Below are positions 701 to 15,736 of a stretch of 39,433 nucleotides of DNA, piece after piece (positions within the stretch are counted from its first letter, which is position 1; each line of letters opens with the position of its first letter). The translations under genes were made by a program, and so were the position numbers. Origin of the DNA: a virus (taxonomy: Duplodnaviria; Heunggongvirae; Uroviricota; Caudoviricetes); IMG/VR virus record IMGVR_UViG_2597489870_000003; one strand, written 5' to 3'. The notes under the pieces were generated by a model. The model was given only the letters and a program-made list of their open reading frames with translations, ran no database searches and had not been told where the DNA came from.

Positions 701-776
<76 letters not shown>

Positions 777-830: not shown

Positions 831-904
831 GGCGCGTTAACAAAGCGGTTATGTAGCGGATTGCAAATCCGTCTAGTCCGGTTCGACTCCGGAACGCGCC
901 TCCA
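831..904 (+). tRNA. cysT: tRNA-Cys (anticodon GCA)
   Basis: GGCGCGTTAACAAAGCGG...TTGCAAATCC...GGTTCGACTCCGGAACGCGCCTCCA; 74 nt. Confidence 0.95.
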
Positions 905-916
905 CTTTCTTCCCGA

Positions 917-1003
917 GCCCGGATGGTGGAATCGGTAGACACAAGGGATTTAAAATCCCTCGGCGTTCGCGCTGTGCGGGTTCAAGTCCCGCTCCGGGTA
1001 CCA
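917..1003 (+). tRNA. leuZ: tRNA-Leu (anticodon TAA), long variable arm
   Basis: GCCCGGATGGTGGAATCGGTAGACACAAGGGATTTAAAATCCC...GGGTTCAAGTCCCGCTCCGGGTACCA; 87 nt. Confidence 0.93.
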
Positions 1004-1045
1004 TGGGAAAGATAAGAATAAAATCAAAGCAATAAGCAGTGTCGT

Positions 1046-1070
1046 GAAACCACCTTCGGGTGGTTTTTTT
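1046..1070 (+). terminator. Rho-independent terminator of the tRNA operon
   Basis: GAAACCACCTTCGGGTGGTTTTTTTG: GC stem with TTCG loop followed by T-run. Confidence 0.8.
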
Positions 1071-1543
1071 GTATTTGTATTTTGTTAAATGGCGGTAAAG
1101 TGGCGATGGTGTGGCGATATGCAGAAATAATGATAGTACACGTCTGTTTAAACTCTAAGGGTGAAGCAAAACTCTCCTGCAACTCATCTGCATTTCGCAT
1201 ATTGAACTAGGGCCTTGGTTAAACCAAAGTTTTTTCTGGGATCTTCCCACTCAACTTCATTTTTCCTCCTACCATCCACCAAAAGGTGTCTGCGCTACTC
1301 TATCTTTTTTAATCTGACAACATCCTGAGAAAAAGACAAATTCGTTAGATTTACTGTCTTTCTGCTGCCTCGAATGCTGATGTCTGCAGCACTGATAATA
1401 ACTCTATCTCTTTGATATAGATCTTTTTTTTGATGAATTGCACGGCATATTATCGTGATTGCACCTTCTTGTTAAAGGTGTTGTACTCCTCATCTCGATT
1501 TTATGATGTGGGCTATGATTGGTTAGTAATAGAGTGTATCGGT

Positions 1544-1825
1544 ATGCGATGTGGTTTATTAATGGCAATCTGCCTTTGTTTGGTATCTTTTAGTGGGTAT
1601 GCAGCAACAGGAAAGTCAGATGCTCAGATCAAGAAAGAAATAATTAAAGAATCCATTGAATCTTATCCAGGCAATTGTGCGTGTCCGTATAATCATGCAA
1701 GGAATGGTAGTAGATGTGGTGGACGCAGTGCATATAGCCGTACTGGAGGGTATGACGTGGTATGTTATGAAAGAGATGTTACCGATGAAATGATCCGGCA
1801 ATGGAAGCAGGAGAATGCTGAGTAA
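1544..1825 (+). CDS. Hypothetical small secreted Cys-rich protein (islet gene)
   Basis: ORF in AT-rich islet; internal Met followed by hydrophobic signal-like segment (MRCGLLMAICLCLVSFSGYAA) and Cys-rich mature part (CxCPYN...RCGG...VCYE). Start codon uncertain; track ORF begins at 1430. Confidence 0.4.
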   Translation: MRCGLLMAICLCLVSFSGYAATGKSDAQIKKEIIKESIESYPGNCACPYNHARNGSRCGGRSAYSRTGGYDVVCYERDVTDEMIRQWKQENAE

Positions 1826-1892
1826 TCTCTTTTAACTGATTTGTTGTGCGAGCATTTTGTGCAGTTAACAGCTCACTAGCTAGTGAGAGTTC

Positions 1893-1935
1893 CAAAAAGA
1901 AACCCCGCAGTTTTTACGCTGCGGGGTTGTTATTC
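1893..1935. terminator. Bidirectional hairpin terminator between the islet ORF and the hok transcript
   Basis: CCCCGCAG-loop-CTGCGGGG stem flanked by an A-run (plus side) and T-rich stretch; sits between convergent units. Confidence 0.5.
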
Positions 1936-2014
1936 ATGCCAATGAGATAGGGTGCCTTATCGGCCTTACCCTAGCAACCGATTGACGGGGAGTTGCCTCC
2001 CCGTCGCGGTTTCC

Positions 2015-2155
2015 TTACTGCTTACACTGTAAGAACGCCGCAAACTCCGCTCCCCAGAAGCTCATCCGTATTTCACACAGCGAACCGTGCAGCATCCAGA
2101 TGATGAGGATTACCGTCACGCAGAACGTGATGGCCGTAAGCGATTTTTGCGACAT
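2015..2155 (-). CDS. Hok/Gef-family type I toxin (small membrane peptide)
   Basis: 46-aa ORF not in the track (too short), translated by hand: MSQKSLTAITFCVTVILIIWMLHGSLCEIRMSFWGAEFAAFLQCKQ. Single hydrophobic helix, then SLCEIR and E-x-AAFL-x-CK motifs as in HokA/HokC; AAGGAG Shine-Dalgarno 8 nt upstream; hairpin directly after the stop. Confidence 0.65.
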   Translation of the reverse strand: MSQKSLTAITFCVTVILIIWMLHGSLCEIRMSFWGAEFAAFLQCKQ

Positions 2156-2340
2156 AGCGCTTGCTCCTTTGTTGGAGAGGCGCTAACCTATCACTTGCTA
2201 GGTTGACGGGTTAGGGCCTCGGTTAAACAGAAATGTTTTCCGGGGCCTTTCCACATCCGGCCTTCGGGTATTCCCTCCGACCATCAGCCGAAAGGCACCC
2301 GCACGTAATCTATCGCTTTTTTGTTACTCCGGCAATTCTG
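2156..2340. promoter_or_regulatory. Predicted hok mRNA leader (mok/sok control region); antisense Sok RNA expected on the + strand
   Basis: Position and length fit the hok-family architecture (about 430-nt mRNA from about 2330 to the 1900 terminator); candidate + strand promoter TTGACG-N15-TAAACA near 2203-2229. Not verified. Confidence 0.3.
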
Positions 2341-2344
2341 CCTG

Positions 2345-2605
2345 TTAATTCTGAGGTAAAGGCAAACTCATCTGATTGTTTCCCCTGTGTGAAGCTGGCA
2401 GCTCATGCCACGGGATACCTTCTGATGAGTGAACGCCGGAGGCGTGTTTCGATGTGAATTTATGGAAAGCTTCCAGTGTTGAGAAGCATACGCCGCATTC
2501 CAGGTTGTTACACTGGTAATACTTTTGCCGCACGGTGTTTGAATCATTTTCCGGACGACTGGTGCGGATACGGGCAGATGCGCCACAAAGCGGACAACGG
2601 AACAT
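2345..2605 (-). CDS. ogr: Ogr/Delta-family zinc-finger late-gene transcriptional activator
   Basis: N-terminus MFRCPLCG...RTSR...YYQCNNLECG matches P2 Ogr (MFHCPLC...RTSR...HQCQNVNC); four-Cys zinc finger. Confidence 0.85.
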   Translation of the reverse strand: MFRCPLCGASARIRTSRPENDSNTVRQKYYQCNNLECGVCFSTLEAFHKFTSKHASGVHSSEGIPWHELPASHRGNNQMSLPLPQN

Positions 2606-2647
2606 AGCGACCTCCCTTAACGTGGTGCTGCCGCTATTCTAAGTTGC

Positions 2648-3492
2648 TCACTCTGTTTCCGCTATCCATTCCGGGATTTTTGCCTCAAGCTCAAGCTGCG
2701 TGGTAAAGCCGCTGTTATCAATGGTGTGCCCGGCTTTTGCAATAATCCAGTCCTGATTATCAATCTCGCTTTTAAATCCTGTTACCGTGCCATGCATTTC
2801 GGGGTAGAGTTCTGCTCGTCCACGTGCCAGCGTGATGGAGAATGATGCGGCTCCGCGTTGTAGTTGTTGCCACTTTGCCGCCGCTGCGCGTCTTGCTGCC
2901 TGCTCGTTCTGATAAGTCTTGCGTAACACAAACACATTGCCTTCCGCGCCTTCCATATAATCACCTTCACGGCTGCTGCTTTTCTCTTTTTTCGGTTTTG
3001 GCGGTTTGCGGCGTTTCACGCTGACTTTTTTCTTTTTCCCGTAATTAAGATCAAGCCAGTAAGCGCGTACCCCCGTATACGCTTCGCGGTCAGCAATGCG
3101 GAACTGATGGCGATCGCCGCTGCTGCGTGTGATGGCGAACGATGGCAACGGCTGGCCCTGTGCGTTCACGCCACCGCCGGGCATGATGAATAACAGATTG
3201 CCGCTTTTTACCGTGGTGATTGCGCCCAGCATTTCCGCCATGCGCGTAAGGAAGGACATGTCGCTTTCTTCGGTCTGGTCGGCGTGGTCGATTTCGATAT
3301 CCATCAGCATTTCGCTGATTTGCGGTTTCAGACCATACCGATGAGCGATGGCGGATACCACACGCTCAACGGTCACATCATGCCAGGACACCTCACGTTT
3401 AACGTTAAATTCATCCCGAAAATCTGCGCTTCTGGCTGAAACAGTCAGCCTGTCCGGCGGTCCTTCGTGAGCGATTTCATCAACAATGTAAG
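2648..3492 (-). pseudogene. P2 gpD-like tail protein (late control D), C-terminal portion, separated from its N-terminus by IS30
   Basis: Translation ...SARSADFRDEFNVKREVSWHDVT...KRRKPPKPKKEK...EGDYMEGAEGNVF...FTTQLELE matches the P2 gpD C-terminal region; reading frame runs unbroken up to the IS30 boundary. Confidence 0.85.
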
Positions 3493-4713
3493 TGTAGATT
3501 CAAGTGGTCAACGCAACAGTTATGTGAAAACATGGGGTTGCGGAGGTTTTTTGAATGAGACGAACATTTACAGCAGAGGAAAAAGCCTCTGTTTTTGAAC
3601 TATGGAAGAACGGAACAGGCTTCAGTGAAATAGCGAATATCCTGGGTTCAAAACCCGGAACGATCTTCACTATGTTAAGGGATACTGGCGGCATAAAACC
3701 CCATGAGCGTAAGCGGGCTGTAGCTCACCTGACACTGTCTGAGCGCGAGGAGATACGAGCTGGTTTGTCAGCCAAAATGAGCATTCGTGCGATAGCTACT
3801 GCGCTGAATCGCAGTCCTTCGACGATCTCACGTGAAGTTCAGCGTAATCGGGGCAGACGCTATTACAAAGCTGTTGATGCTAATAACCGAGCCAACAGAA
3901 TGGCGAAAAGGCCAAAACCGTGCTTACTGGATCAAAATTTACCATTGCGAAAGCTTGTTCTGGAAAAGCTGGAGATGAAATGGTCTCCAGAGCAAATATC
4001 AGGATGGTTAAGGCGAACAAAACCACGTCAAAAAACGCTGCGAATATCACCTGAGACAATTTATAAAACGCTGTACTTTCGTAGCCGTGAAGCGCTACAC
4101 CACCTGAATATACAGCATCTGCGACGGTCGCATAGCCTTCGCCATGGCAGGCGTCATACCCGCAAAGGCGAAAGAGGTACGATTAACATAGTGAACGGAA
4201 CACCAATTCACGAACGTTCCCGAAATATCGATAACAGACGCTCTCTGGGGCATTGGGAGGGCGATTTAGTCTCAGGTACAAAAAACTCTCATATAGCCAC
4301 ACTTGTAGACCGAAAATCACGTTATACGATCATCCTCAGACTCAGGGGCAAAGATTCTGTCTCAGTAAATCAGGCTCTTACCGACAAATTCCTGAGTTTA
4401 CCGTCAGAACTCAGAAAATCACTGACATGGGACAGAGGAATGGAACTGGCCAGACATCTAGAATTTACTGTCAGTACCGGCGTTAAAGTTTACTTCTGCG
4501 ATCCTCAGAGTCCCTGGCAGCGGGGAACAAATGAGAATACAAATGGGCTAATTCGGCAGTACTTTCCTAAAAAGACATGTCTTGCCCAATATACTCAACA
4601 TGAACTAGATCTGGTTGCTGCTCAGCTAAACAACAGACCGAGAAAGACACTGAAGTTCAAAACACCGAAAGAGATAATTGAAAGGGGTGTTGCATTGACA
4701 GATTGAATCTACA
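3493..4713 (+). mobile_element. IS30 insertion sequence (1221 bp)
   Basis: Left end TGTAGATTCAAGTGGTCAACGCAACAG, right end ...CAGATTGAATCTACA; flanked by 2-bp direct repeat AG (3491-3492 and 4714-4715). Confidence 0.95.
3555..4706 (+). CDS. insI: IS30 transposase
   Basis: 383-aa ORF matching IS30 transposase as recalled (N-terminal HTH, DDE motif region). Confidence 0.95.
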   Translation: MRRTFTAEEKASVFELWKNGTGFSEIANILGSKPGTIFTMLRDTGGIKPHERKRAVAHLTLSEREEIRAGLSAKMSIRAIATALNRSPSTISREVQRNRGRRYYKAVDANNRANRMAKRPKPCLLDQNLPLRKLVLEKLEMKWSPEQISGWLRRTKPRQKTLRISPETIYKTLYFRSREALHHLNIQHLRRSHSLRHGRRHTRKGERGTINIVNGTPIHERSRNIDNRRSLGHWEGDLVSGTKNSHIATLVDRKSRYTIILRLRGKDSVSVNQALTDKFLSLPSELRKSLTWDRGMELARHLEFTVSTGVKVYFCDPQSPWQRGTNENTNGLIRQYFPKKTCLAQYTQHELDLVAAQLNNRPRKTLKFKTPKEIIERGVALTD

Positions 4714-4986
4714 AGTGCCTTTTTCTGTCAGCGGTTCTCCTTTCCAGCCAATGAGAACCGTCAGGCGCGCGCCCCGTGCCCGTGGCGGTAGCAGCAACTG
4801 ACCATCCGCATCATCCAGCGTGATGGTGAGCTGGTCCGCCTCAAATCCCCGGTTGTCGGTCAGTGACAGGCTCATCAGGCGCTCTGCCACGCCTGACAGC
4901 GTTTTACCCTCCGCGAGAATATCAAAATCCGGCATTTTTACGGGGTCTGTGCCCTGACTGAGCAATTGCATGGTGGTGTCGGTCAT
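4714..4986 (-). pseudogene. P2 gpD-like tail protein, N-terminal portion (upstream of IS30)
   Basis: MTDTTMQLLSQGTDPVKMPDFDILAEGK...LSLTDNRGFEADQL...IGWKG matches the gpD N-terminus; in frame with the C-terminal part once IS30 and one AG copy are removed. Confidence 0.8.
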
Positions 4987-5143
4987 CTGCTCCCTCCCTG
5001 TGCGGCATGGTCGCATGTGCGTGCGGAGGGGGTTACTGCTTTTTGTTGTCGCCGTGGCGGGAGAACGGCGCAGGGGTGAGATTACGCGCGTGGTGGGTGA
5101 TGATTGTTGCCGAATCATTTAACGGATACAAGGGGCTGAAGCT
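4987..5143. promoter_or_regulatory. Divergent intergenic region between D (-) and FI (+); presumed late promoters
   Basis: 157-bp gap between divergent gene starts, GC-rich with dyad symmetry (CGCCG...CGGCG); no clean TGT-N12-ACA Ogr box found. Confidence 0.3.
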
Positions 5144-6328
5144 ATGAGTGAAACTCGTTTTCATGGTGCCCGTGTTACGGAAAATACCGACCTGGTAACA
5201 GCGATTAACGATGTTGATTCCAGCGTTATCGGTATCGTGGCAACGGCGGATGATGCGGACGCGAAGCTGTTCCCGCTGAACAAGCCCACACTGCTGACCC
5301 GCGTCAATGACGTGCTGGGAAAATGCGGGACAACGGGGACGCTTTATCGTGCGCTTAAGGCCATCGCAGACCAGGTGAGCACAAAGGTGATCGTCGTTCG
5401 CGTGGCTGAACACAAAGAAGAAGACGGAAAAACGCAGGATCAACTGGTTATCGGTGGTTCTGAATCTGACGGCAGCTATACGGGGATGTATGCGCTGCTT
5501 GTTGCAGAGCAGGATGAAAGCATCGGATACCGTCCGCGTATTCTGGCCGCGCCGGAGCTGGACACGGAGGCGGTAACAAAATCCCTGTGCGTGATTGCGG
5601 GTAAACTGCGCGCGTTTGTGTATGCCTCATGTCACGGCTGTAACACGATGGCTGAGGCGATTACCTACCGCCAGAAATTCAACGAACGTGAGGTGATGCT
5701 CTTATGGCCGGACTTCATCGCCTACAACCCGAAAAGTGGCAAAAACGAAACGTTCCCCGCGCCTGCCTATGCGTGCGGCCTTCGTGCGTACATTGACCAT
5801 GAGCAGGGCTGGCACAAATCGCTGTCCAACGTTCCTGTTAAAAATGTGCTGGGAATGTCCAGGCATGTGTTCTGGTCGTTGCAGGCCGAAGACAGTGATG
5901 CCAACAGCCTCAACAACAAAGAAATCACGACCATTATTCGTCGCAACGGGTTCCGCTTCTGGGGCAACCGCACACCGGAAACGAACGCCTACATCTTTGA
6001 GGTGTATACCCGAACCGCACAGGTGCTGGCTGATTCAATTGCAGAAGCGCAGTTTGAAACCATCGACAGTCCACTGACGCCTGCGAACGTGAAGGATGTT
6101 ATCAGTGCCATCAGGGCAAAACTGGATTCACTGGTTACTGCCGGGAAACTGATTGGCGCGGAGTGCTGGTATGACGTGGTGGATAACAGCACCACGGATT
6201 TACGTCAGGGGCGTGTGCGTATTCGCTACAAATATACGCCTGTTCCGCCACTGGAAGACATGGAGCTTTACCAGACGTTTACTGATGAATACTTTGAACC
6301 TGCATTTGCGGTGCTGGGAGGTGCCTGA
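5144..6328 (+). CDS. Tail sheath protein (P2 gpFI-like)
   Basis: 394 aa; matches P2 FI along its length (ADDADA..FPLNKP, LRAF.Y, WPDF.A, GLRA.IDHEQGWHK.LSNV, RRNGFRFWGNRT, YTPVPPLE). Confidence 0.93.
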   Translation: MSETRFHGARVTENTDLVTAINDVDSSVIGIVATADDADAKLFPLNKPTLLTRVNDVLGKCGTTGTLYRALKAIADQVSTKVIVVRVAEHKEEDGKTQDQLVIGGSESDGSYTGMYALLVAEQDESIGYRPRILAAPELDTEAVTKSLCVIAGKLRAFVYASCHGCNTMAEAITYRQKFNEREVMLLWPDFIAYNPKSGKNETFPAPAYACGLRAYIDHEQGWHKSLSNVPVKNVLGMSRHVFWSLQAEDSDANSLNNKEITTIIRRNGFRFWGNRTPETNAYIFEVYTRTAQVLADSIAEAQFETIDSPLTPANVKDVISAIRAKLDSLVTAGKLIGAECWYDVVDNSTTDLRQGRVRIRYKYTPVPPLEDMELYQTFTDEYFEPAFAVLGGA

Positions 6329-6840
6329 TGGCTGTGCCAAAACATCTTCGCTTTTTTACGCTGTTTGTGGATGGTGAAAACGAAGTGGGTAAGGTGACGT
6401 CCGTCACTCTGCCTAAGCTGACGCGCAAAACCGACAGCTACCGGGGTGGTGGCATGATGGGTGCGGTAAGTATTGATCTCGGTCTGGACGACTCCGCGCT
6501 TGATGCGAGCTTTGTCATGGGGGGCGCAGTTCGTGAGCTGTTCCTGAAGTATGGCGGCACGATTGACGGCACGCTGCTGCGTTTTGCGGGTGAATACTAC
6601 ACCGATGCAGAAAGCGACCTGTATGAAGTCGAAATGCGCGGACGTGTGACGGAAATTGATATGGGGGAAGCCAAACAGGGCGAAGCCACATCACACACTT
6701 ACGCCATTAAAAACACCTACTACAAGCTGAGTGTTAACGATCGCCCGTTGTGGGAGATTGACCTGCTGAACTTCATTTACCGGAAGGACGGCAAGGACAT
6801 TGTGCCCGATCGCATCCGTTCCGCGCTTGGGCTTGGCTGA
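6328..6840 (+). CDS. Tail tube protein (P2 gpFII-like)
   Basis: 170 aa, start overlaps FI stop (ATGA); FII-like size and position. Confidence 0.85.
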   Translation: MAVPKHLRFFTLFVDGENEVGKVTSVTLPKLTRKTDSYRGGGMMGAVSIDLGLDDSALDASFVMGGAVRELFLKYGGTIDGTLLRFAGEYYTDAESDLYEVEMRGRVTEIDMGEAKQGEATSHTYAIKNTYYKLSVNDRPLWEIDLLNFIYRKDGKDIVPDRIRSALGLG

Positions 6841-6894
6841 TAAGTAATATGCAGGCGGCGCAGTGCGTCGCCTCTGACTGAAAGGAGTTTCCTG

Positions 6895-7260
6895 ATGAAA
6901 GAGACGAAAAACATCGATACCGAAAACACGGTCGTTGCTGACACTGTGAAAGAAACCAGTGAGCGTGGCGTAAAACTTACCCAACCAATTGAGCGAGGCG
7001 GCGAAAAAATCACGTATGTGGAGATCACCGGAGCTATTGAGCAGGCTGGATCTCTGCGAGATTTGTCGTTGTCTGATGTGCTGAATCTGAAAGCGGAATC
7101 CATGTTTACGCTGCTGTCACGCGTGACATCACCGCGACTGGATGAAGTGACGATCAAAAAAATGGCATCCCGTGACTTTATTCAGTTATGTGTGGTTGCC
7201 GTAAATTTTTTGAGCGGTGCGGACTCTGGCGGGAAGAACGAACAGGCGACGGAAGCCTGA
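6895..7260 (+). CDS. Tail assembly chaperone (P2 gpE-like)
   Basis: Position between tube and tape-measure genes; contains slippery TTTTTTG heptamer at 7206-7212. Confidence 0.8.
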   Translation: MKETKNIDTENTVVADTVKETSERGVKLTQPIERGGEKITYVEITGAIEQAGSLRDLSLSDVLNLKAESMFTLLSRVTSPRLDEVTIKKMASRDFIQLCVVAVNFLSGADSGGKNEQATEA

Positions 7261-7424
7261 TCACGGTTGTGTGCTTTGAGCACATAGAAGACTTTGTGGC
7301 AGATATTGCCGTTATTTTTAACTGGTCGCCCGCCGAAATCTTCATGATGACGCCCGGCGAAGTGGTTAGCTGGCGTGAGCGGGCGGCACTTCGCAGCGGG
7401 AATGCAGACAATGAAGACTCTTGA
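6895..7424 (+). CDS. gpE+E' -1 programmed frameshift product (tail assembly chaperone, extended form)
   Basis: Zero-frame codons AAT TTT TTG give slippery heptamer T TTT TTG; the -1 frame stays open from 7212 to the stop at 7422-7424 and overlaps the tape-measure start. Confidence 0.6.
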
Positions 7425-10218
7425 TATCCGGGTCGCTTTCAGCGCCGTTGACAGGCTGACCCGGCCTGCCGAAAACGCCCGCCGCCTGATGGGGCAGTTT
7501 GGTGACTCCATCCAGCGAACGCAGGGGGCGATCAAAAATCTCGAGCGTCAGGCGCGTTCATTTGAGCGCGCCCGCGACGCTGTCAGTAAAGCGGATGCGG
7601 GTATCGTGAAAGCACGACGCCAGCTTAACGCCCTTAATCAGTTACAACGCACGGGTACAGTGCTCAGCGAAAAGCAACAAAAGCTGATGCAGCAGTTAAG
7701 CACCCGGCTTGAACGCCTGAATGAATCGCGCATACGGGAAATTCAGAAAATGCGGGAGCTTGGCGGAGAGCTGAAACGCCACGGCATTTCCCTGACAGGC
7801 AGCGATAACACCATTCAACAGGCCATCAGGCGCACCGAACAGTACAACAACCAGCTTGAACGCGAACGGCAGTCGCTTGCGCGTGTAACGCGGGCGCGTG
7901 AGCGGTATTCGCGTGCGCAGGAAACAGCGGGAAAACTGAAAACAGGTGGTGTACTGGCAATTGGTGCGGCAGCGGCGGGCGGCTATGCTGCCGGGCGTTT
8001 TTTGCAGCCCGCAATCGGGTTCGGGAAAGAGATGTCCCGCGTTCAGGCGCTGACGCGAATCGACCAGAACAGCCCGCAGTTTAAGGCGCTGCGTGAGCAG
8101 GCGTTAAAACTTGGCTCTGAAACGCAGTTCACCGCAGGCGATGCCGCCAGTGGGCAGGCATTTCTTGCAATGGCTGGCTTCACACCGCAGGCCATTCAGG
8201 CTGCGCTTCCCGGCGTGTTGAGCATGGCAACGGCTGGCGGTATGGATCTCGGCGAGACGGCGGATATTGGCTCAAATATCCTGACGCAGTTCGGCCTTTC
8301 TGCTGACCAGATGGACCGGGTCGGTGACACACTCACTGCAGCGTTTACCCGTACCAACACTGACCTTCGCGCACTGGGCGAAACCATGAAATATGCCGGT
8401 CCGGTGGCGGGTAAGCTGGGAATATCGCTGGAGCAGGCTGCAGCGATGGCTGGCGTGCTGGCGAATATGGGTATCAGAGGGAGTGATGCCGGGACGGCAA
8501 TGCGTGCCAGCCTGGCTCGTCTGGCATCACCGCCAAAGGCAGCAGCAGAGGCGCTGAAAGAGCTGGGCGTGTCCGTTTCTGACGCGAACGGCAAAATGCG
8601 CCCGATGGAAGATCTGCTGGCTGACCTTTATAAAGCCACCCGCAAATACGGGGAAGTTGACCGGGTATCGTTCTTTAAGGATATTGCCGGAGAAGAGGCT
8701 TTCACATCATTTATGGCCCTCGTTGATGCGGCAGGTGACGGCTCCTTACCCAAACTGAGAAAAGAACTTGAAGGCGCGCGCGGTGAGGCTGAACGCACAG
8801 CAAAGGTTATGGCCAACAACCTTGACGGCGATCTGAAATCACTCGGCAGTGCATGGGAAGGGGTGCGCATCCGCATTGCAGATCTGATTGACGGTCCGCA
8901 GCGTTCTGTCACGCAGTGGCTCACGCGGGTGGTATCGAAGGTGACGGCGCTGGCGCAGGCCCATCCGGCACTGACGCGCCAGCTACTGGTTGCAGGCGGT
9001 GCTCTGCTGGCAATGACTGCAACCATAGGCTCGTTGTCGCTGGCTATTGGTGTGCTTGCTGGCCCACTGGCAAAACTGCGTCTTGGTTTTTCCCTCCTGA
9101 CCGGATCATTGAATGTTGTCAGGGTTCTGCCTGCATTATGGGGAATGGTGACGGGTTCCATTTCGTTACTGGGAGGCGCTATCGGGGCGCTGTTCAGTCC
9201 GGTCGGATTGATTGCTGCTGCGTTTGTGGCTGCGGCGGTTCTCATCTGGAAATACTGGGAACCCATCAAGGCGTTTTATGCAGGGGTGTTCAGTGGGATT
9301 ATGGAACGGCTGGCTCCGTTGCGCGAAACCTTTGAACGGTTTGGCCCTGTTTTTGACGCAATCGGAAGCGGGATCAGCCAGGTGTTTAACTGGTTTAAAT
9401 CGCTGCTGTCACCGATGGAGTCCAGTAAGGAAACGCTGGATAAATGTACCAGTGCTGGCGAGATATTCGGTAACGTTCTTGGCGGTGCGTTACAGCTTGT
9501 TCTGACACCTGCAAAAATGCTACTGGATACGCTGGCGTGGATACTTGAAAAACTTGGCGTCCTTCCGGATGAAGCTGAAAGGGCGCGCAAGAAAATCGAA
9601 GACGCACAGCGTGCGGCCATTCTTCAGGACAAGGTTGCCTTGCTTCAGGGGGACCTGGCGAAAATCAATCCGCCGAAGCCTGTGGAAAATGGCAATGGCA
9701 CCGGAGGTGATAAACCCAAAGACAACAAACCACTCACAGACAGCAATACCGGTACGCTACGCAGACTCAGCAAAATTGCTGATAACACAGGTAAGCTGGT
9801 TGATGAGACGAAAAAACGCATTGGCCCCGGTGATATTGTCTTTAAGAACCTGCCCCGCGCACTTGCTGTTCGTGGGGAGTGGCAGGAGCGGAAGATTGCG
9901 CAGGTCAGTAAGCCTGCCCCCGCAATTACTATCACACCCGTGGTTCCGGCTCCGCTGCCTCCGGCGCTGGTCCCTGTTGTTGCGGCCAGCTCCCGCCCGG
10001 TGGCGGAGGCTATACGATCGCCAGTGGCATCAGTTCCTGCAAATTCCCGTAACCGGGAGCCTGTTGCCTCCGGATTTGGCGGTGAAATTCATGTTCATCT
10101 GCATAACGTTGTTACACAGAATCCCCGCGAACTGGCGAAACTGGTCGGTGAAATGGTCAGGGCAGAAATGGAACGGCGCGTCCGTGCCGGACGTGGCAGT
10201 TTTTACGATAAAGATTGA
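7411..10218 (+). CDS. Tail tape measure protein (P2 gpT-like)
   Basis: About 935 aa, coiled-coil N-terminus, Gly/Ala-rich hydrophobic central segment, position after E/E'. Start could be 7375, 7402 or 7411. Confidence 0.9.
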   Translation: MKTLDIRVAFSAVDRLTRPAENARRLMGQFGDSIQRTQGAIKNLERQARSFERARDAVSKADAGIVKARRQLNALNQLQRTGTVLSEKQQKLMQQLSTRLERLNESRIREIQKMRELGGELKRHGISLTGSDNTIQQAIRRTEQYNNQLERERQSLARVTRARERYSRAQETAGKLKTGGVLAIGAAAAGGYAAGRFLQPAIGFGKEMSRVQALTRIDQNSPQFKALREQALKLGSETQFTAGDAASGQAFLAMAGFTPQAIQAALPGVLSMATAGGMDLGETADIGSNILTQFGLSADQMDRVGDTLTAAFTRTNTDLRALGETMKYAGPVAGKLGISLEQAAAMAGVLANMGIRGSDAGTAMRASLARLASPPKAAAEALKELGVSVSDANGKMRPMEDLLADLYKATRKYGEVDRVSFFKDIAGEEAFTSFMALVDAAGDGSLPKLRKELEGARGEAERTAKVMANNLDGDLKSLGSAWEGVRIRIADLIDGPQRSVTQWLTRVVSKVTALAQAHPALTRQLLVAGGALLAMTATIGSLSLAIGVLAGPLAKLRLGFSLLTGSLNVVRVLPALWGMVTGSISLLGGAIGALFSPVGLIAAAFVAAAVLIWKYWEPIKAFYAGVFSGIMERLAPLRETFERFGPVFDAIGSGISQVFNWFKSLLSPMESSKETLDKCTSAGEIFGNVLGGALQLVLTPAKMLLDTLAWILEKLGVLPDEAERARKKIEDAQRAAILQDKVALLQGDLAKINPPKPVENGNGTGGDKPKDNKPLTDSNTGTLRRLSKIADNTGKLVDETKKRIGPGDIVFKNLPRALAVRGEWQERKIAQVSKPAPAITITPVVPAPLPPALVPVVAASSRPVAEAIRSPVASVPANSRNREPVASGFGGEIHVHLHNVVTQNPRELAKLVGEMVRAEMERRVRAGRGSFYDKD

Positions 10219-10224
10219 GGAGTC

Positions 10225-10719
10225 ATGGCCATGATGATGATCTACGGCATGTTTGTTTTTGAGCTGCGCACATTGCCGCATCAGCAGTTACAGCAAAACA
10301 AAAGCTGGCGGCATGTGAAAAATGAGCGCGTAAACCGCTCAGCAAGCTGGCAGTATATCGGTGCAGGTGATGATCGCATCGTGCTTTCTGGCGTGCTTTA
10401 TCCTGAAATTACAGGTGGCGAAGTGTCGCTTTCGCTGCTGACCACGCAGGCATATACAGGACGCCCCTGGCCTCTGATTGATGGTGTCGGGCAGATTTAC
10501 GGCATGTATGTCCTGACCGGAACGAATACGACCCGTTCCGAGTTTGATCGCTACGGTAAGGCGAAAAAGATAGAATTTTCACTGACACTTGAACGCTGTG
10601 ATGAGGATTTGCGGGAGCGCCTGCAATCCTCATCATTCAGCGATATGCTGTCCGGCTTCAAAGATAAGGTGACATCATCTCTTAACAGCGCGGCCAGTTC
10701 AGTTAAAGGGATGTTCTGA
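10225..10719 (+). CDS. Tail protein (P2 gpU-like)
   Basis: 164 aa; MAMMMIYGMFVFELRTLPHQQLQ... matches the gpU N-terminus. Confidence 0.85.
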   Translation: MAMMMIYGMFVFELRTLPHQQLQQNKSWRHVKNERVNRSASWQYIGAGDDRIVLSGVLYPEITGGEVSLSLLTTQAYTGRPWPLIDGVGQIYGMYVLTGTNTTRSEFDRYGKAKKIEFSLTLERCDEDLRERLQSSSFSDMLSGFKDKVTSSLNSAASSVKGMF

Positions 10720-10726
10720 TTTAACA

Positions 10727-10765
10727 CAAAAACCGCTAATGGTCAGATTAGCGGTTATTTTGTTT
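10727..10765. terminator. Bidirectional terminator between gpU (+) and invertase (-)
   Basis: AAAAACCGCTAATGGTCAGATTAGCGGTTATTTTGTTT: stem flanked by A-run and T-run. Confidence 0.7.
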
Positions 10766-11342
10766 CCTGACTCTTCTCAATTGTTCCGCTTGGTTCTCCT
10801 GCGGGGTGGTAACGATAAATCGTCGATATACCAATGCCGTAAATTATTGCCAGTTGTTTTCTGTCGTGACCGTTTTTAATCAGCCTTGCTATTTGCTCAT
10901 GCTGTTCTTTTGTCAGCTTCGGTCGACGTCCGCCTGTGCGCCCCCGTGCGCGCGCTGCCGCCAGTCCGGCCAGTGTACGTTCAACAATTAATTCACGTTC
11001 CATTTCAGCCAGGGCCCCCATCACGTGGAAGAAAAAACGCCCCATTGGAGAAGATGTATCTATGCTGTCGGTCAGACTGCGAAAATTAATCCCTCGCTCC
11101 CGTAGTTCCCCGACGAGAGAAATCAGATGTTTCATGCTTCGCCCGAGGCGATCCAGTTTCCAGACAACCAGCGTGTCACCTTTTTGAAGGCGCTTTAAAG
11201 CGCGTTTTAATCCCGGTCGGTCTGTCTTTGTCCCGCTTAATTTATCTTCAAATATCTGTTCACATCCTGCACAAACAAGAGCGTTTCGTTGCAGGTCTGT
11301 ATTCTGGTCATTTGTTGATACCCTTACATAGCCAATCAGCAC
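10755..11342 (-). CDS. Serine recombinase, DNA invertase (Gin/Pin/Cin/Hin family)
   Basis: VLIGYVRVSTNDQNTDLQRNAL...VWKLDRLGRSMKHLISLV...C-terminal HTH (IGISTIYRY); catalytic Ser in the VRVST motif. Likely GTG start at 11342 (track ORF starts at a TTG at 11360). Confidence 0.92.
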   Translation of the reverse strand: MLIGYVRVSTNDQNTDLQRNALVCAGCEQIFEDKLSGTKTDRPGLKRALKRLQKGDTLVVWKLDRLGRSMKHLISLVGELRERGINFRSLTDSIDTSSPMGRFFFHVMGALAEMERELIVERTLAGLAAARARGRTGGRRPKLTKEQHEQIARLIKNGHDRKQLAIIYGIGISTIYRYHPAGEPSGTIEKSQETK

Positions 11343-11396
11343 ACTGAATCTCCCGTCCAAAAGCGCAAATCATGCCATGCAGGCCAGAAACGGCCA

Positions 11397-11422
11397 TTAT
11401 CTAAAACCTCGGTTTACAGGAA
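11397..11422. repeat. gix/hix-like 26-bp inversion crossover site (proximal to invertase)
   Basis: TTATCTAAAACCTCGGTTTACAGGAA; inverted partner at 14324-14349; close to the Gin/Hin crossover-site consensus. Confidence 0.85.
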
Positions 11423-11446
11423 ACGGTAAACAGGGCCAGGAACGCC

Positions 11447-12283
11447 GTGCAAAAGAATGGCGATACCTTGTCCGGTGGGCTTACTTTTGAAAACGACTCA
11501 ATCCTTGCCTGGATTCGAAATACTGACTGGGCGAAGATTGGATTTAAAAATGATGCCGACAGCGATACTGATTCATACATGTGGTTTGAAACAGGCGACA
11601 ACGGCAATGAATATTTCAAATGGAGAAGCAAACAAAGCACCACAACAAAAGACCTGATGACGCTGAAATGGGATGCACTAAATATTCTTGTTAATGCCGT
11701 CATTAATGGCAGCCTTGGAGTTGGTACGACGAATGCGTTAGGTGGTAGCTCTATTGTTCTTGGTGATAATGATACCGGATTTAAACAGAATGGAGACGGT
11801 ATTCTTGATGTTTACGCTAATAGTCAGCGAGTATTCCGCTTTCAGAATGGAGTTGCTATTGCTTTTAAAAACATTCAGGCAGGTGATAGTAAAAAAATCT
11901 CGCTATCCAGCTCCAACACCTCCACAAAGAATGTAACGTTTAATTTATGGGGTGCTTCAACCCGTCCAGTAGTTGCAGAGTTAGGCGATGAGGCAGGATG
12001 GCATTTCTATAGCCAGCGAAATACAGATAACTCGGTAATATTTTCTGTTAACGGTCAGATACAGCCCAGCAACTGGGGGAATTTTGATTCACGCTATGTA
12101 AAAGATGTTCGCCTGGGTACGCGAGTTGTTCAATTGATGGCGCGTGGTGGTCGTTATGAAAAAGCCGGACACGCAATTACCGGATTAAGAATCATTGGTG
12201 AAGTAGATGGCGATGATGAAGCCATCTTCAGACCAATACAAAAATACATCAATGGCACATGGTATAACGTAGCACAGGTGTAA
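11447..12283 (+). CDS. Alternative tail-fibre C-terminal (receptor-binding) cassette, currently unfused
   Basis: The frame stays open back into the crossover site (...LGLQETVN encoded at 11407-11430), so inversion would fuse it in frame to the constant N-terminal part of the fibre gene. Confidence 0.8.
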   Translation: MQKNGDTLSGGLTFENDSILAWIRNTDWAKIGFKNDADSDTDSYMWFETGDNGNEYFKWRSKQSTTTKDLMTLKWDALNILVNAVINGSLGVGTTNALGGSSIVLGDNDTGFKQNGDGILDVYANSQRVFRFQNGVAIAFKNIQAGDSKKISLSSSNTSTKNVTFNLWGASTRPVVAELGDEAGWHFYSQRNTDNSVIFSVNGQIQPSNWGNFDSRYVKDVRLGTRVVQLMARGGRYEKAGHAITGLRIIGEVDGDDEAIFRPIQKYINGTWYNVAQV

Positions 12284-12286
12284 ATT

Positions 12287-12814
12287 ATGCAGCATTTAAA
12301 AAATATTAAGTCAGGAAATCCAAAAACAAAAGAGCAATATCAGCTAACAAAGAATTTTGATGTTATCTGGTTATATACAGAAGACGGTAAAAACTGGTAT
12401 GAGGAAGTAAATAGCTTTCAGGAAGACACCATAAAGATTGTTTACGACGAAAATAATATTATTGTTGCCATAACCAAAGATGCCTCAACGCTTAATCCCG
12501 AAGGCTTTAGTGTCGTTGAGATTCCAGATATAACAGTCAATCGTCGTGCCGATGATTCAGGGAAGTGGATGTTTAAGGACGGAACTGTGGTTAAGCGGAT
12601 TTATACAGCAGACGAACAGCAACAACAGGCCGAATCACAAAAGGCCGCATTGCTTTCCGAAGCTGAATCAGTCATCCAGCCACTGGAACGCGCTGCCAGG
12701 CTGAATATGGCAACAGACGAGGAGCGCACACGACTGGAAGCATGGGAACGCTACAGTGTTCTGGTCAGCCGTGTGGATACGGCAAATCCTGAATGGCCAC
12801 AAAAGCCTGAATAA
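12287..12814 (+). CDS. Tail fibre assembly chaperone (alternative copy, gpG/U'-like)
   Basis: 175 aa; about 60% identical to the oppositely oriented paralogue at 12843-13376 ([22 protein letters not shown]...). Confidence 0.85.
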
Positions 12815-12842
12815 AAATTAAGGCCCGCTATCGGGCCTTGTC
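12815..12842. terminator. Bidirectional terminator between the two convergent fibre-assembly genes
   Basis: AAGGCCCGCTATCGGGCCTT hairpin. Confidence 0.6.
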
Positions 12843-13376
12843 TCATTCAGGTTGTTCGGGAAATGTTACTGGCAGGCTGGAAGTGTCTGTAGATTCGACT
12901 TTCTGCGCAAAGAGTATCCACTCTGTTAATTTTTGTTTACTCTCGTCGGAAATGATGCCCAGCCGTAGCTGTGAGTCCCATAACTGGGTTTTATCCCTGA
13001 CAAGTTGCAACAGGCTTTGCTTTTCATTCTCTGCCTGCTGCCTCTGCTCTTCCCCGGTATAAGTTCGCTTTATCACTACGCCATCTTTGAACATCCATTT
13101 ACCCGAAATATCAGCCCGGCGATTTGCTGTAATATCAGGTAATTCAACGACGCTTGCGCCTTCTGGATTAATTGCTGAAACATCCTTTTCAATACAAATA
13201 ATAACGCCGTTACGGTCATAGACCATTTTCAACGTATCAGGCTGAAAGTTCTTTTGTTCCTCATACCAGTTTTTTCCATCATCTGAATAAAGCCATTTGA
13301 TGTTAAATTGTTTCGTTAGCTGGTATTGCTCTTTTGTTTTAGGGTTGCCAGCAGTAATGTTTTTTAAGTGCATCAT
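12843..13376 (-). CDS. Tail fibre assembly chaperone (P2 gpG-like), active orientation
   Basis: 177 aa directly downstream of the fibre gene. Confidence 0.88.
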   Translation of the reverse strand: MMHLKNITAGNPKTKEQYQLTKQFNIKWLYSDDGKNWYEEQKNFQPDTLKMVYDRNGVIICIEKDVSAINPEGASVVELPDITANRRADISGKWMFKDGVVIKRTYTGEEQRQQAENEKQSLLQLVRDKTQLWDSQLRLGIISDESKQKLTEWILFAQKVESTDTSSLPVTFPEQPE

Positions 13377-13378
13377 AA

Positions 13379-15736
13379 TTAAATACTCCCCGCGTTATAC
13401 CACCTTCCATTAATGCAATACTGAATTGGCCTTGCCTGAGTTGTATCAATTAATTCATCACGGTTTCCGTTAACTGAACCCGTAACGACATAACCTGACC
13501 TGTCAGACCAGCCGGGACCATTCCATGTCTGAACAGATGACAGACCGCCCAGGCGAATACCTGTAATAAACCTTGAGTTACATTCTGCCTGCGTATATGC
13601 ACCAACATCCCCCGCAGAGGGTTTGCGGGTTGTGGTGTAAAACTCTGACCAGTTAGCTTCAAAGCCATAACCATCACGCGCTGAACGATAAAAGATACCG
13701 CCGTTTTTATAATTCACGCGGAACTGTACAGCAGGGCAACTCCCCGCATTCATATTAAAGTGGAGGATTAATGTCGATGCGCCACTGATATCTGCATCAT
13801 AAACGCCGCTATTCCAGTTCCAGCCAACAGCTTTATCATTTGCAACCCTGCTTCCTGTTTGCCCTAAAGCAAATGCAGGCTGCTGGTTTTTCGTGTTGTA
13901 GTCTCGTCGCCAGCCAGGAGCATAAGCATCACCATGATTAATATAGGTGAATTGAGCGTTAGTAATTCCGCCACCGCTGGATGTACTCGGCGTAGTAACG
14001 CGTATGGTCATTGCGCCGCGAGTGCCAATAACTTCCACCACAGCACCTGCAAGACAAATATTTCCGCAACCTGTATCTGTAATGACCTTATTGTTTGCAT
14101 AAGCCCATGAGCCTTTGCACATCCAGTAAGGATGGTTAAATGCCCCCTGACTCTCCAGCCACGAAATGAATTGTGCGGTTGTCCAGGTCTGACTATCGCC
14201 ACCAATATTCAGCCATGCGCTATATGCGCGGCAGGCACCAATATTTTTGGTGAAGGTATCTTTTCCTGGAATATCTGCGCCGTTCTGTTTTTTCTGTAAT
14301 GCACCAGAAGCCTGATTTACCGTTTCCTGTAAACCGAGGTATTCGATAACAGCGGCAACGGTCGATTTCGCAAGAATATCCCGCCCGACTTTTGTCAGGG
14401 TTGCCAGGCTGGCGACATCATTCCCCGTAAAATACGGAAACTTGTCTGCCGCAGTAGCAAGCCCGGCCAGCGCCGTCAGGGTGGCATCTTTCGGTTGCTT
14501 ACCCGCAAGCGCTTTAGTCATGGTGGTCGCAAAATTCGGGTCGTTTCCCAGCGCCGCCGCTAACTCGTTCAACGTATTCAGTGCGTCAGGCGACGAGTCT
14601 ACAAGTGCGGCAATCGCGGCCATCACATAAGCCGTGCTTGCGATCTGAGTATTATTAGTCCCTTTTGGCGTTGTTGGCGTTCCGGTCAGTGCAGGACTGT
14701 TTAAGGGCGCTTTCTTGTTCGTTTCATCCATTACCGCCTTAACAGCTTTTGGCGTCGCAGCCAGCGTTTCAGATGTGCTGTTAGTGGCGCTACTGAGCTG
14801 AACTATCCCTTTTCGTGCCGTCGTTGCGTCCTGAGCGGTATATTTTGCGTTAGCAAGGTCATATGCGGCCTTTACTGCTTTCGGCGTTGCAGCCAGCGTT
14901 TCAGATGTGCTGTTAGTGGCGCTACTGAGCTGAACTATCCCTTTTCGCGCAGTGGTAGCGTCCTGTGCGGTGTATTTGCCATTAGCCAGGTCATATGCCG
15001 CCTTAACAGACTTTGGCGTTGCCGCAAGCGTTTCAGACGTGCTGTTGGTGGCGCTACTGAGCTGAACTATCCCTTTCCGCGCAGTGGTTGCGTCCTGTGC
15101 GGTGTATTTGCCATTAGCCAGGTCATATGCTGCCTTAACAGCCTTAGGTGTCGCAGCCAGCGTTTCAGATGTGCTGTTAGTGGCGCTGCTAAGTTGAACA
15201 AAGCCTTTTGCGGTCAGCGAGGCGTCCGGGTGACGTCGTGACTGTTCATGCTCTTTCAGTTTGTCATCCACGTAATCCACTGTGGCCATTACCATGGTGT
15301 TATCCACGGTAAGCGCCATAGTGGCAGTGCTGGATACGGTCAGAATGGTGCGAAATGTTTGTGCACGTCCTGACCCTTCGGCAACGGTTGGCTTGTAACT
15401 TTCGGCAGTATTGCCTACTGCGATTAAATCGCCGTGCTCATCAAACACACCAATTTCCCGGATCCAGAATCCGCCCGTTTCAGGAGGAATAACCAGCTCT
15501 GCAATAATGCGGTTCTGATGTGTTGCGTCCAGGATGACGCGATTAACAGTGTGTCGCCACACCTCATGCACAAGACGGGTCTGCTTACTGTCTGGCGAGG
15601 GCAACGTGCCGCCGCCGTCACCCACGGCCATATGAGTCAGGCGGACCGGTTTACCATCTGGTGTGGCTGCCTGCGCTAATTTTTTTTCACCCGTATCGGT
15701 GATAACGGTTTTAAATTTTCGTGTTGTGGTACTCAT
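13379..15736 (-). CDS. Tail fibre protein (P2 gpH-like) with invertible C-terminal domain
   Basis: 785 aa; N-terminus MSTTTRKFKTVITDTGEKKLA...MAVGDGGG matches P2 H; four 44-aa tandem repeats; crossover site lies inside the gene at 14324-14349. Confidence 0.93.
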   Translation of the reverse strand: MSTTTRKFKTVITDTGEKKLAQAATPDGKPVRLTHMAVGDGGGTLPSPDSKQTRLVHEVWRHTVNRVILDATHQNRIIAELVIPPETGGFWIREIGVFDEHGDLIAVGNTAESYKPTVAEGSGRAQTFRTILTVSSTATMALTVDNTMVMATVDYVDDKLKEHEQSRRHPDASLTAKGFVQLSSATNSTSETLAATPKAVKAAYDLANGKYTAQDATTARKGIVQLSSATNSTSETLAATPKSVKAAYDLANGKYTAQDATTARKGIVQLSSATNSTSETLAATPKAVKAAYDLANAKYTAQDATTARKGIVQLSSATNSTSETLAATPKAVKAVMDETNKKAPLNSPALTGTPTTPKGTNNTQIASTAYVMAAIAALVDSSPDALNTLNELAAALGNDPNFATTMTKALAGKQPKDATLTALAGLATAADKFPYFTGNDVASLATLTKVGRDILAKSTVAAVIEYLGLQETVNQASGALQKKQNGADIPGKDTFTKNIGACRAYSAWLNIGGDSQTWTTAQFISWLESQGAFNHPYWMCKGSWAYANNKVITDTGCGNICLAGAVVEVIGTRGAMTIRVTTPSTSSGGGITNAQFTYINHGDAYAPGWRRDYNTKNQQPAFALGQTGSRVANDKAVGWNWNSGVYDADISGASTLILHFNMNAGSCPAVQFRVNYKNGGIFYRSARDGYGFEANWSEFYTTTRKPSAGDVGAYTQAECNSRFITGIRLGGLSSVQTWNGPGWSDRSGYVVTGSVNGNRDELIDTTQARPIQYCINGRWYNAGSI
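14324..14349. repeat. gix/hix-like 26-bp inversion crossover site (inside tail fibre gene)
   Basis: TTCCTGTAAACCGAGGTATTCGATAA, the inverted partner of 11397-11422 (23 of 26 positions). Confidence 0.85.
14719..15246. repeat. Four tandem 132-bp coding repeats within the tail fibre gene
   Basis: AGCGTTTCAGA(T/C)GTGCTGTT(A/G)GTGGCGCT recurs at 14763, 14895, 15027 and 15159; encodes repeated QDATTARKGIVQLSSATNSTSETLAATPKAVKAAYDLANGKYTA. Confidence 0.9.

Follow-up and report, generated by a model that had tools for sequence, protein, structure and literature searches.

The inverted FI–U tail block of the H10407 prophage follows the normal gene order of a P2-like branch that includes P88

Gene organization of the tail block and its flanks

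The window, the whole 39,433-nucleotide stretch analysed here (IMG/VR record IMGVR_UViG_2597489870_000003), matches the ETEC H10407 chromosome at 100%. Genes were placed using the open reading frame list, the annotation of the identical region in the H10407 RefSeq record, Pfam matches and tblastn mapping. On the plus strand, the block at 5144–10719 carries its genes in the order of a P2-type tail (F) operon: FI for the tail sheath (5144–6328; Pfam Phage_sheath_1, Gp18_domIII_N and Phage_sheath_1C), FII for the tail tube (6328–6840; Phage_tube, E = 7.5e-47), the tail chaperone gene E (6895–7260, from frame analysis) with its extended E+E′ form (6895–7424; Phage_P2_GpE on the E′ frame), T for the tape measure (7411–10218; PhageMin_Tail, E = 7e-59) and the tail protein gene U (10231–10719; Phage_P2_GpU, E = 1.4e-38). 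Frame analysis places a –1 slippery site, TTTTTTG, at 7206–7212 and shows the E′ frame to be open as far as 7424.

The flanking genes ogr, D, the invertase, G (12843–13376) and H (13379–15736) all lie on the minus strand, and the opposition of strands that had been predicted from the sequence is borne out by the reading frames, RefSeq, Pfam and tblastn alike. The gene ogr (2345–2605; Pfam Ogr_Delta, E = 5e-14, and RefSeq), encoding the Ogr/Delta zinc-finger activator of late genes, is found 3′ of D, the baseplate hub gene. D itself is split in two by an IS30 element. Its C-terminal part (2648–3492) was mapped by tblastn with residues 89–366 of P88 D at 98.6% identity, the intact P88 protein having the Pfam match Phage_GPD, while its N-terminal 91 codons (4714–4986) are annotated in RefSeq as a pseudogene, ‘phage late control D family protein’, and are collinear with P88 D. 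As predicted, D and FI diverge across a spacer of 157 bp (4987–5143), and U and the invertase converge, with stops at 10719 and 10755.

The IS30 copy (3493–4713, plus strand, 1221 bp) was identified from its terminal inverted repeats and the RefSeq IS30 transposase. It is bounded by a 2-bp AG target duplication (3491–3492 and 4714–4715), D is collinear on either side of it, and its right end at 4713 is 273 bp from the start of D, in keeping with the predicted distance of about 270 bp. H10407 also carries an IS1 element 3′ of Q.

At the other end of the block, a terminator scan of both strands found a hairpin at 10731–10756 with a 10-bp stem and with T runs on either strand. Its energies are –16.1 and –15.7 kcal/mol (z about –4), and it is retained in P88-like loci that have no invertase. 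From its structure, the hairpin may serve as a bidirectional terminator common to U and the invertase. The invertase gene (10755–11342, minus strand; Pfam Resolvase and HTH_7) is of the Gin type, with about 92% nucleotide identity to Mu gin. It adjoins an invertible fibre segment (11397–14349) delimited by gix sites at 11397–11422 and 14324–14349, the only two matches to the gix pattern in the window, against none expected. This segment is flipped relative to P88 between collinear flanks and occurs in both states among genomes, and with its invertase, gix sites and alternative fibre and assembly genes the element truly belongs with the Mu Gin/G segment and the Salmonella Hin-type segments.

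The gene families of the block and of D and ogr match those of the P2 F operon (pF: FI, FII, E, E′, T, U, D, then ogr), including the TTTTTTG site for the E/E′ frameshift and the placement of ogr after D, although protein identity to P2 is only 32–49% for FI, FII, E, T, U and D. In the P2 record V to G, FI to U, D and ogr are all on one strand, confirming the co-directional order that had been assumed for P2, and U and D abut. In the window, by contrast, FI–U is inverted relative to both V–G and D–ogr, and D is uncoupled from U, with a start region of its own; the P2 trait of a D gene directly 3′ of U, on the same strand, co-transcribed from pF and co-directional with V–G, is absent.

Conservation of the order among relatives

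The orientation of FI–U seen here is the normal working order of a P2-like branch that includes phage P88, and not a recent flip. P88 (Xuanwuvirus P88, NC_026014) is collinear with window positions 4713–11400, from D through the invertase, in a single megablast piece at 97.0% identity, and the strands in its annotation agree with those of the window. The Citrobacter phage PhiSM is collinear over the same interval at 95% identity. In both phages H, G, the invertase, U-T-E-FII-FI, D and ogr are on the same strands as in H10407, and the 157-bp spacer and its dyad (described below) are likewise shared. With high identity and collinearity across both junctions, the H10407 prophage belongs to the P88-like group (genus Xuanwuvirus). 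P88, a phage with a contractile tail, forms plaques and has a burst size of 65 (PMC5285337), and PhiSM is reported to be fully functional (PMC6456863), so that related intact phages carry this orientation as their normal functional order. The H10407 copy differs from P88 and PhiSM in having D split by IS30 and IS1 3′ of Q, and from P88 in the opposite state of its fibre segment; it is therefore probably defective.

The same order is widespread. Thirteen phage records each cover at least 80% of the query, and of the 1374 complete E. coli genomes matching a probe that spans D, the spacer and FI, 1357 had it intact. Among more distant phages, the block has the same orientation in the Salmonella phage SEN4 (Senquatrovirus), in the Klebsiella phages of Reipivirus and Reginaelenavirus, in Kp4848-1 and Kp4877-2, and in Serratia KSP20, the record of which is a fragment that leaves the invertase position uncovered. 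SEN4, the Reipivirus and Reginaelenavirus phages and KSP20 have D–FI spacers of 150–160 bp with a TGT-N12-ACA dyad, at protein identities of 63–75% for D and 56–71% for FI; the half-site that reads AGA in H10407 is a perfect ACA in these phages.

In a census of IMG/VR, FI and D were divergent and adjacent in 80 of 80 loci with a D protein 61–99% identical to that of P88. In the GTDB census FI and D were divergent in all 61 loci whose D protein shows 61% or more identity to P88 D, in contrast to the loci with D at 48–53% identity, which had the canonical U–D order in 19 cases out of 19. Simple neighbor-joining trees of D and FI (rooted on P2, no bootstrap) placed the divergent loci in one clade with no canonical locus within it, and this clade extends to prophages of about 25 genera of Enterobacterales. 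No genome with the block in the other orientation was seen among the 80 IMG/VR loci, the 61 inverted GTDB loci and the E. coli probe matches.

Origin of the inverted order

The original prediction left a choice between a lineage-specific arrangement and an inversion of roughly 5.6 kb. The former stands; a local inversion is refuted because the intact relatives P88, PhiSM, SEN4 and KSP20 share the orientation. A flip in the prophage or its close ancestors, driven by the resident Gin-type invertase at pseudo-gix sites flanking FI–U, is very improbable. An active-looking invertase gene does adjoin the block, and comparison with P88 indicates that its own segment does flip, but no gix site is present at the FI–U borders, and degenerate half-sites in the two junctions, a check proposed with the original prediction, are at background (four matches with up to four mismatches, against about 4.6 expected). 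Nor did a search find inverted repeats pairing the two borders; only the repeats of the IS30 termini and of the fibre segment stand out. Moreover, SEN4, Kp4848-1 and Kp4877-2 share the order with no detectable invertase homologue, and detection of the invertase was limited to 12 of the 80 loci in IMG/VR, where some loci are truncated, and to 8 of the 61 inverted ones in GTDB. The FI–U block is not an invertible segment: unlike the Mu Gin/G and Hin segments, it has no flanking recombination sites and was observed in one state only.

The other suggested driver, a rearrangement tied to the IS30 copy in D, either through IS-mediated inversion or through recombination between IS copies, draws on the short distance of 273 bp between the element and the D–FI junction. 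It is even harder to credit, since the IS30 is a simple insertion with its AG duplication intact and D collinear on both sides, no second IS30 end was found at either border of the block, and the element is absent from P88 and nearly all relatives. The gene order is the same, with no IS30, in P88 and in about 1350 E. coli genomes, and the matches to all of these start right at the edge of the element (query base 14). Least credible of all is an artefact of assembly, which had also been raised: both junctions are identical in two complete H10407-type records and collinear in 1357–1358 complete E. coli genomes and 13 phage records, and the independent assemblies in IMG/VR and GTDB show the same order. 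We regard this explanation as excluded because 1357 complete E. coli genomes carry the junction.

A candidate bidirectional late promoter in the D–FI spacer

Late promoters of the Ogr/Delta type have a dyad centred about 55 bp 5′ of the transcription start and a –10 element, with no –35 element. Their activator is encoded in the window as ogr, and the D–FI spacer is a candidate for such a promoter on account of its conserved length, conservation profile and alignment. At 5047–5064, centred on 5055.5, lies the dyad TGTcgccgtggcgggAGA, the proposed Ogr site. It has the form TGT-N12-AGA, with five of the six half-site bases matched and one mismatch to the Ogr/Delta consensus TGT-N12-ACA (as cited in PMC3931495). 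The P2 pF and pO/pP sites likewise have one mismatch (CCA) and five of six matched bases.

Motif searches alone were uninformative. An exact TGT-N12-ACA scan of the window gave four matches, below chance and none at late promoters, and allowing one mismatch gave 178, the number expected by chance; no pV-type dyad was found 5′ of V in the window. The dyad signal emerged only from a position-anchored comparison of the motif among relatives. In 67 unique spacers from relatives, the length ranges from 147 to 161 bp, and a TGT-N12-A[CG]A dyad is present at the corresponding position in 66, with 40 different N12 sequences. Such free variation of the N12 argues that the spacer is probably saturated with changes. 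The compared spacers share descent, and part of their conservation is inherited. Across the 67 spacers the dyad centre is 81.5–88.5 bp from the FI ATG and 64.5–79.5 bp from the D ATG. The former distance is 88.5 bp in the window, compared with about 82.5 bp from the pF site to the FI ATG in the P2 record and 79.5–84.5 bp in canonical relatives.

A profile of 35 non-redundant spacers shows a conserved –10 element on each side of the dyad centre, at +48.5 and –48.5. On the FI side this is GATnAT, at +43.5 to +48.5; on the D side it is TGnAAnnAT, read on the minus strand and ending in a T that lies 48.5 bp from the centre. The corresponding elements of the window would be GATGAT for FI (pF; 5099–5104, plus strand), with a predicted start near 5111, and an extended –10, TGC-GACCAT, for D (5007–5015, minus strand), with a predicted start near 5000. 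The site at 5055.5 is the only one in the window that combines a dyad with a correctly placed –10 on both strands, and its extended motif, TTGTTGT-N12-AGAAC, is present also in the window’s own P–O spacer. The D-side –10, GACCAT, is weak in H10407, and the leader predicted for D, although it includes a Shine-Dalgarno sequence, is short at about 13 nt.

This layout has a precedent in P2, where a single activator site serves the divergent promoters pP and pO, with starts annotated 111 bp apart, or about 55.5 bp to each side of the dyad centre. The window spacer has the same design of one dyad between two divergent genes, serving D and FI and not P and O, although here the starts are predicted, the geometry being read only from the –10 hexamers that are conserved at 48.5 bp to each side of the centre. 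From the conserved motif and its spacing, we predict that the D–FI spacer is a bidirectional Ogr-type late promoter in which Ogr would bind one dyad and activate transcription in both directions. The claim that the late-promoter layout must differ from that of P2 thus finds support in comparative evidence, from both the 67 spacers and the 35-spacer profile.

It is also possible, if rather unlikely, that the order is the lineage norm and D is driven independently of the shared dyad, by a sigma-70 or other promoter of its own or by transcription from within or antisense to FI, in which case the conserved D-side block would have another role. The weak D-side –10 of H10407 would fit such a reading, as would the conserved block GCGCGCGCG at –38 to –30, which has no known role in P2 promoters. 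Scanning the spacer for generic sigma-70 promoters gave no match, which could be set on the same side, but a blank result is to be expected there because P2 late promoters have no –35 element. Weighing against a separate D promoter are the exact symmetry of the –10 elements in the 35 non-redundant spacers, the tight constraint on spacer length and the precedent of a shared site at pP/pO. On balance we lean towards the shared dyad: an ancient inversion may well have rewired the P2 late regulon, capturing the pF site as a two-way promoter for FI–U and D–ogr.

Evolutionary scenario

The gene identities, the orientation and the phylogenetic distribution are best explained by a single ancient inversion, which we infer to be the most parsimonious history. 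One breakpoint would have been 5′ of the pF activator site and the other between the end of U and the start of D, so that pF would have moved along with FI, and D, the last gene of the P2 F operon, would have been left back-to-back with pF. The 157-bp spacer would now function as a single-site, two-way late promoter around the dyad centre at 5055.5, with the predicted starts near 5111 and near 5000 in the geometry of the shared pP/pO site of P2. At the far end, U and its convergent neighbour (the invertase here, G in relatives) would share the terminator hairpin. Taken as a whole, it is highly probable that the order is ancestral and fixed in the clade, that the H10407 prophage inherited it, and that it goes back to one ancient inversion with the proposed consequences for promoter and terminator.

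Significance of the arrangement

The inverted order is an ordinary architecture, and little hangs on the feature as such. In the literature on P88, PhiSM, SEN4 and Serratia PP4, and in papers on Burkholderia P2-like phages and P2-like diversity (2026), the inverted block goes unmentioned; Casjens & Grose 2016, which may describe the order, was outside this set. Within the same scope, no description of a two-way D–FI promoter layout was found.

About a quarter of complete E. coli genomes carry a prophage of the family in which the inverted block is the standard architecture. The orientation of FI–U should be counted neither as a rearrangement nor as a sign of invertase or IS activity. Rather, the relative orientation of FI and D is a clean marker, useful for prophage typing and annotation: it tells a deep clade within Peduoviridae, in which identity to P88 D is 61% or more, apart from canonical P2- and 186-like phages (at most 53%). 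The D–FI spacer is, in turn, a testable and well-constrained candidate for one activator site serving two divergent late promoters. If the two-way reading is true, a single genome would hold a second copy of the pP/pO design, ogr would sit 3′ of an Ogr-dependent promoter on a short D–ogr transcript, and the hub protein D would be expressed apart from the sheath and tube.

Gene layout of the inverted tail block

The window is part of the chromosome of E. coli ETEC H10407 (4700-11400 is 100% identical to NC_017633.1), and in the RefSeq annotation the P2-like prophage within it adjoins pgsA and the tRNA Gly-Cys-Leu locus. Gene identities were assigned by combining the ORF list, Pfam and tblastn mapping. 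The minus strand carries ogr (2345-2605), D in two pieces (2648-3492 and 4714-4986), the invertase gene (10755-11342), G (12843-13376) and H (13379-15736), followed by I, J, W and V. The plus strand carries the tail genes that we call the FI-U block: FI (5144-6328), FII (6328-6840), E (6895-7260), E′ (reached via the slippery site TTTTTTG at 7206-7212 and ending at 7424), T (7411-10218) and U (10231-10719). D and FI start divergently across 157 bp (4987-5143, the D-FI spacer), and U and the invertase gene converge with 35 bp between their stops. In the P2 record, by contrast, all corresponding genes lie on a single strand. ORFs, Pfam, tblastn and the P2 record thus confirm every detail of the original prediction that FI-U opposes its neighbours, with divergent D/FI and convergent U/invertase.

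In content, the FI-U block is a standard P2-type sheath-tube-chaperone-tape-measure-U module, and it departs from the P2 F operon in one defining trait only, the location of D downstream of U. The prophage is an IS-damaged member of the P88-like group (Xuanwuvirus). The H10407 prophage is probably unable to make tails, since D is split by IS30 (3493-4713; 1221 bp, flanked by a 2-bp AG target duplication). In RefSeq, the C-terminal D piece is listed as a separate ‘VgrG/Pvc8 family’ protein. A second element, with an IS1B transposase (27123-27820), closely follows the portal gene Q; in related strains and phages (90-9280, ETEC-2264 and phages 520873 and 503458) an IS100 sits inside the FI-U block instead.

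Distribution of the inverted order

In a megablast of 4700-11400 against phage records, P88 aligned to 4713-11400 as a single collinear piece at 97.0% identity, and 13 records, including Citrobacter phage PhiSM and Xuanwuvirus P884B11, reached at least 80% query coverage. The annotated strands of P88 repeat the pattern of the window (H, G and invertase +; U-T-E′-E-FII-FI −; D +), and its ogr, absent from the annotation, is found at 34476-34733 (+). Both reference phages are functional: P88 is plaque-forming, with a burst size of ~65 and a contractile tail of ~137 nm (PMC5285337), and PhiSM has been described as temperate and fully functional (PMC6456863).

Searching all phage records with FI and D by tblastn, we found the two genes adjacent and divergent in Klebsiella Kp4848-1 (Reipivirus) and Kp4877-2 (Reginaelenavirus) and in Salmonella SEN4/SEN5 (Senquatrovirus), and co-directional in 186, L-413C, P2, ST15-OXA48phi14.1, RsoM1USA and the distant Alux-21. 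When gene strands were mapped in the fetched genomes, these orientations held, and Serratia KSP20 joined the divergent set. Two censuses were then made with a D-protein profile, one of IMG/VR and one of GTDB contigs (one genome per species). In IMG/VR, FI and D were divergent and adjacent in all of the best 80 loci, whose D proteins are 61-99% identical to P88 D. In GTDB, FI(−) lay directly upstream of D in 61/61 loci with D identity of at least 61%, whereas U(+) took that place, giving the canonical order, in 19/19 loci with 48-53% identity. Hosts of the inverted form span ~25 genera of Enterobacterales, including Salmonella, Klebsiella, Enterobacter, Serratia, Erwinia, Pantoea, Pectobacterium, Edwardsiella, Providencia, Morganella, Xenorhabdus, Photorhabdus, Yersinia and Hafnia. 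One 226-kb contig labelled as a Firmicute (‘Vagococcus sp. WN89Y’, NZ_JBQPOM010000071.1) has a D/FI junction of the P88 type (99% protein identity), likely reflecting assembly contamination or mislabelling.

Origin of the inverted order

The alternatives to a lineage-specific arrangement were an assembly artefact or a local inversion driven by IS30 or by the resident serine invertase. The full 6.7-kb stretch occurs in one place in 1358 of 5426 complete E. coli genomes, and a D-spacer-FI probe (4716-5600) matches 1374 E. coli genomes and is intact in 1357 of them; E2348/69 and O157:H7 strains carry the junction. These counts rule out both an artefact and an inversion private to the H10407 prophage. 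IS30 does interrupt D, but D is collinear across it, and nearly all relatives lack the element, with matches that start at its exact edge; the element inserted later, in a simple event, and inactivated D, and the proposed IS30-linked event is rejected.

The invertase has a real substrate nearby. The window holds exactly two gix-consensus matches (11397-11422 and 14324-14349; zero expected by chance), enclosing alternative fibre and assembly genes. Since segment 11397-14349 is flipped between H10407 and P88, with both flanks collinear, it is a Gin-type substrate known in both states, and the active fibre assembly gene of the window is the counterpart of the inactive copy in P88 (96.6% versus 57.6% amino acid identity). 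Unlike the FI-U block, this neighbouring segment is truly a Gin-type system. At the FI-U borders gix half-site matches occurred only at background frequency, no inverted repeat pairing the two borders was found, and no genome compared had the block in the opposite state. An invertase homologue was detected in none of SEN4, Kp4848-1 and Kp4877-2, in only 12 of the 80 best IMG/VR loci (some of them truncated) and in 8 of 61 inverted GTDB loci; even in some P88-like loci of the IMG/VR census, G converges directly on U. Recombination by the invertase at a secondary site is accordingly rejected as the driver.

What stands is the lineage-specific arrangement, common to P88, SEN4, Kp4848-1, Kp4877-2, KSP20 and the census loci. 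Because the inverted loci form one clade in P2-rooted NJ trees of D and FI, with zero canonical loci inside, and more distant relatives keep the canonical order, the simplest reading is one old inversion fixed at the base of the clade. The fibre gene appears to have been exchanged mosaically between the two clades, since the N-terminal part of H (13379-15736) is 72-91% identical to P2 H (L004 12743-13804) whereas for FI, FII, U and D the identity to P2 is only 42-49%.

A putative bidirectional late promoter

P2 late promoters require Ogr and have a TGT-N12-ACA element in common (PMC3931495, citing Christie & Calendar 1985, Julien & Calendar 1995). In the P2 record, a single activator site (3057-3087) is annotated for divergent pP and pO, whose starts (3016 and 3127) are 111 bp apart, or 55.5 bp either side of the dyad, and the pF dyad is centred 82.5 bp from the FI ATG. 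The D-FI spacer contains TTGTTGTcgccgtggcgggAGAAC at 5043-5066 (dyad centre 5055.5); elsewhere in the window, its 12 specified bases recur at this spacing only in the P-O spacer (24064-24087). Among 67 unique IMG/VR spacers between D and FI (147-161 bp, median 154), a TGT-N12-A[CG]A dyad is present in 66, centred 81.5-88.5 bp from the FI ATG and 64.5-79.5 bp from the D ATG; its half-sites are kept while the interior varies freely (40 distinct N12 sequences). As canonical relatives hold the pF dyad 79.5-84.5 bp from FI, pF seems to have moved along with FI.

In a position-anchored profile of 35 spacers with mutual identity <85%, the FI side conserves GATnAT at +43.5 to +48.5 and then GAACTCA from +55.5, and the other strand on the D side conserves TGnAAnnAT with its last T at −48.5. 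The two −10 elements, conserved at +48.5 and −48.5, are therefore equidistant from the dyad centre, and the starts they predict, +55.5 and −55.5, match the spacing in P2 pP/pO. For FI, the predicted −10 is GATGAT (5099-5104, +), which would put the start near 5111 and give a leader of 33 nt; for D it is TGC-GACCAT (5015-5007, −), which would put the start near 5000, with the ribosome-binding site GGGAGGGAG inside a leader of ~13 nt. In a composite scan, 5055.5 was the only window site with a dyad and a correctly placed −10 on both strands. The D-FI spacer would then act as a bidirectional pF/pD late promoter around one dyad, and this comparative evidence supports the expectation that the promoter layout differs from that of P2. 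An alternating GCGCGCGCG block is also strongly conserved on the D side of the spacer in most clade members (alignment-anchored positions −38 to −30 from the dyad centre). We noted no such block in P2 late promoters, and the versions in H10407 and P88 are degenerate (GTGCGTGCG, about 5018-5026).

Downstream of U, a hairpin at 10731-10756 (10-bp stem, T runs on both sides, −16.1 / −15.7 kcal/mol on the two strands, z ~ −4) is kept in P88-like loci without the invertase, and likely terminates both the FI-U transcript and the opposite-strand invertase transcript.

The P-O spacer shares the extended motif TTGTTGT-N12-AGAAC with the D-FI spacer. Its dyad (24068-24085, centre 24076.5) lies 73.5 bp away from the ATG of P and 81.5 bp away from that of O as annotated in RefSeq (23995), a placement that fits a P2-like shared pP/pO site; the O start given by the longest ORF (24028) is probably wrong. 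A search of 17500-19400 for a TGT-N12-ACA-type dyad with a −10 at the right distance found none upstream of V (start 18075). S and V are just 11 bp apart, and V-W-J-I-H-G may be read through from pO.

Other prophage contents and significance

A ParM/StbA actin-like segregation ATPase and its Plasmid_stab_B partner (29458-30733), both also annotated in P88, place plasmid-type partition machinery within an integrating P2-like phage. A hok/gef family toxin gene (2015-2155), likewise in P88, lies between ogr and the prophage end. The right end (36979-39433) is low in GC (41-45%), looks unlike the P88 C/int region and encodes an HTH protein, a DUF2511 protein, a 216-aa protein without a Pfam match and a tyrosine integrase truncated by the window edge.

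Explicit discussion of the inverted order was not found in a non-exhaustive search of the P2-like phage literature, and the order itself is visible in many public annotated records. The inverted FI-U order is an ordinary finding, and the only mildly new element is our own reading of the spacer as a bidirectional pF/pD promoter.
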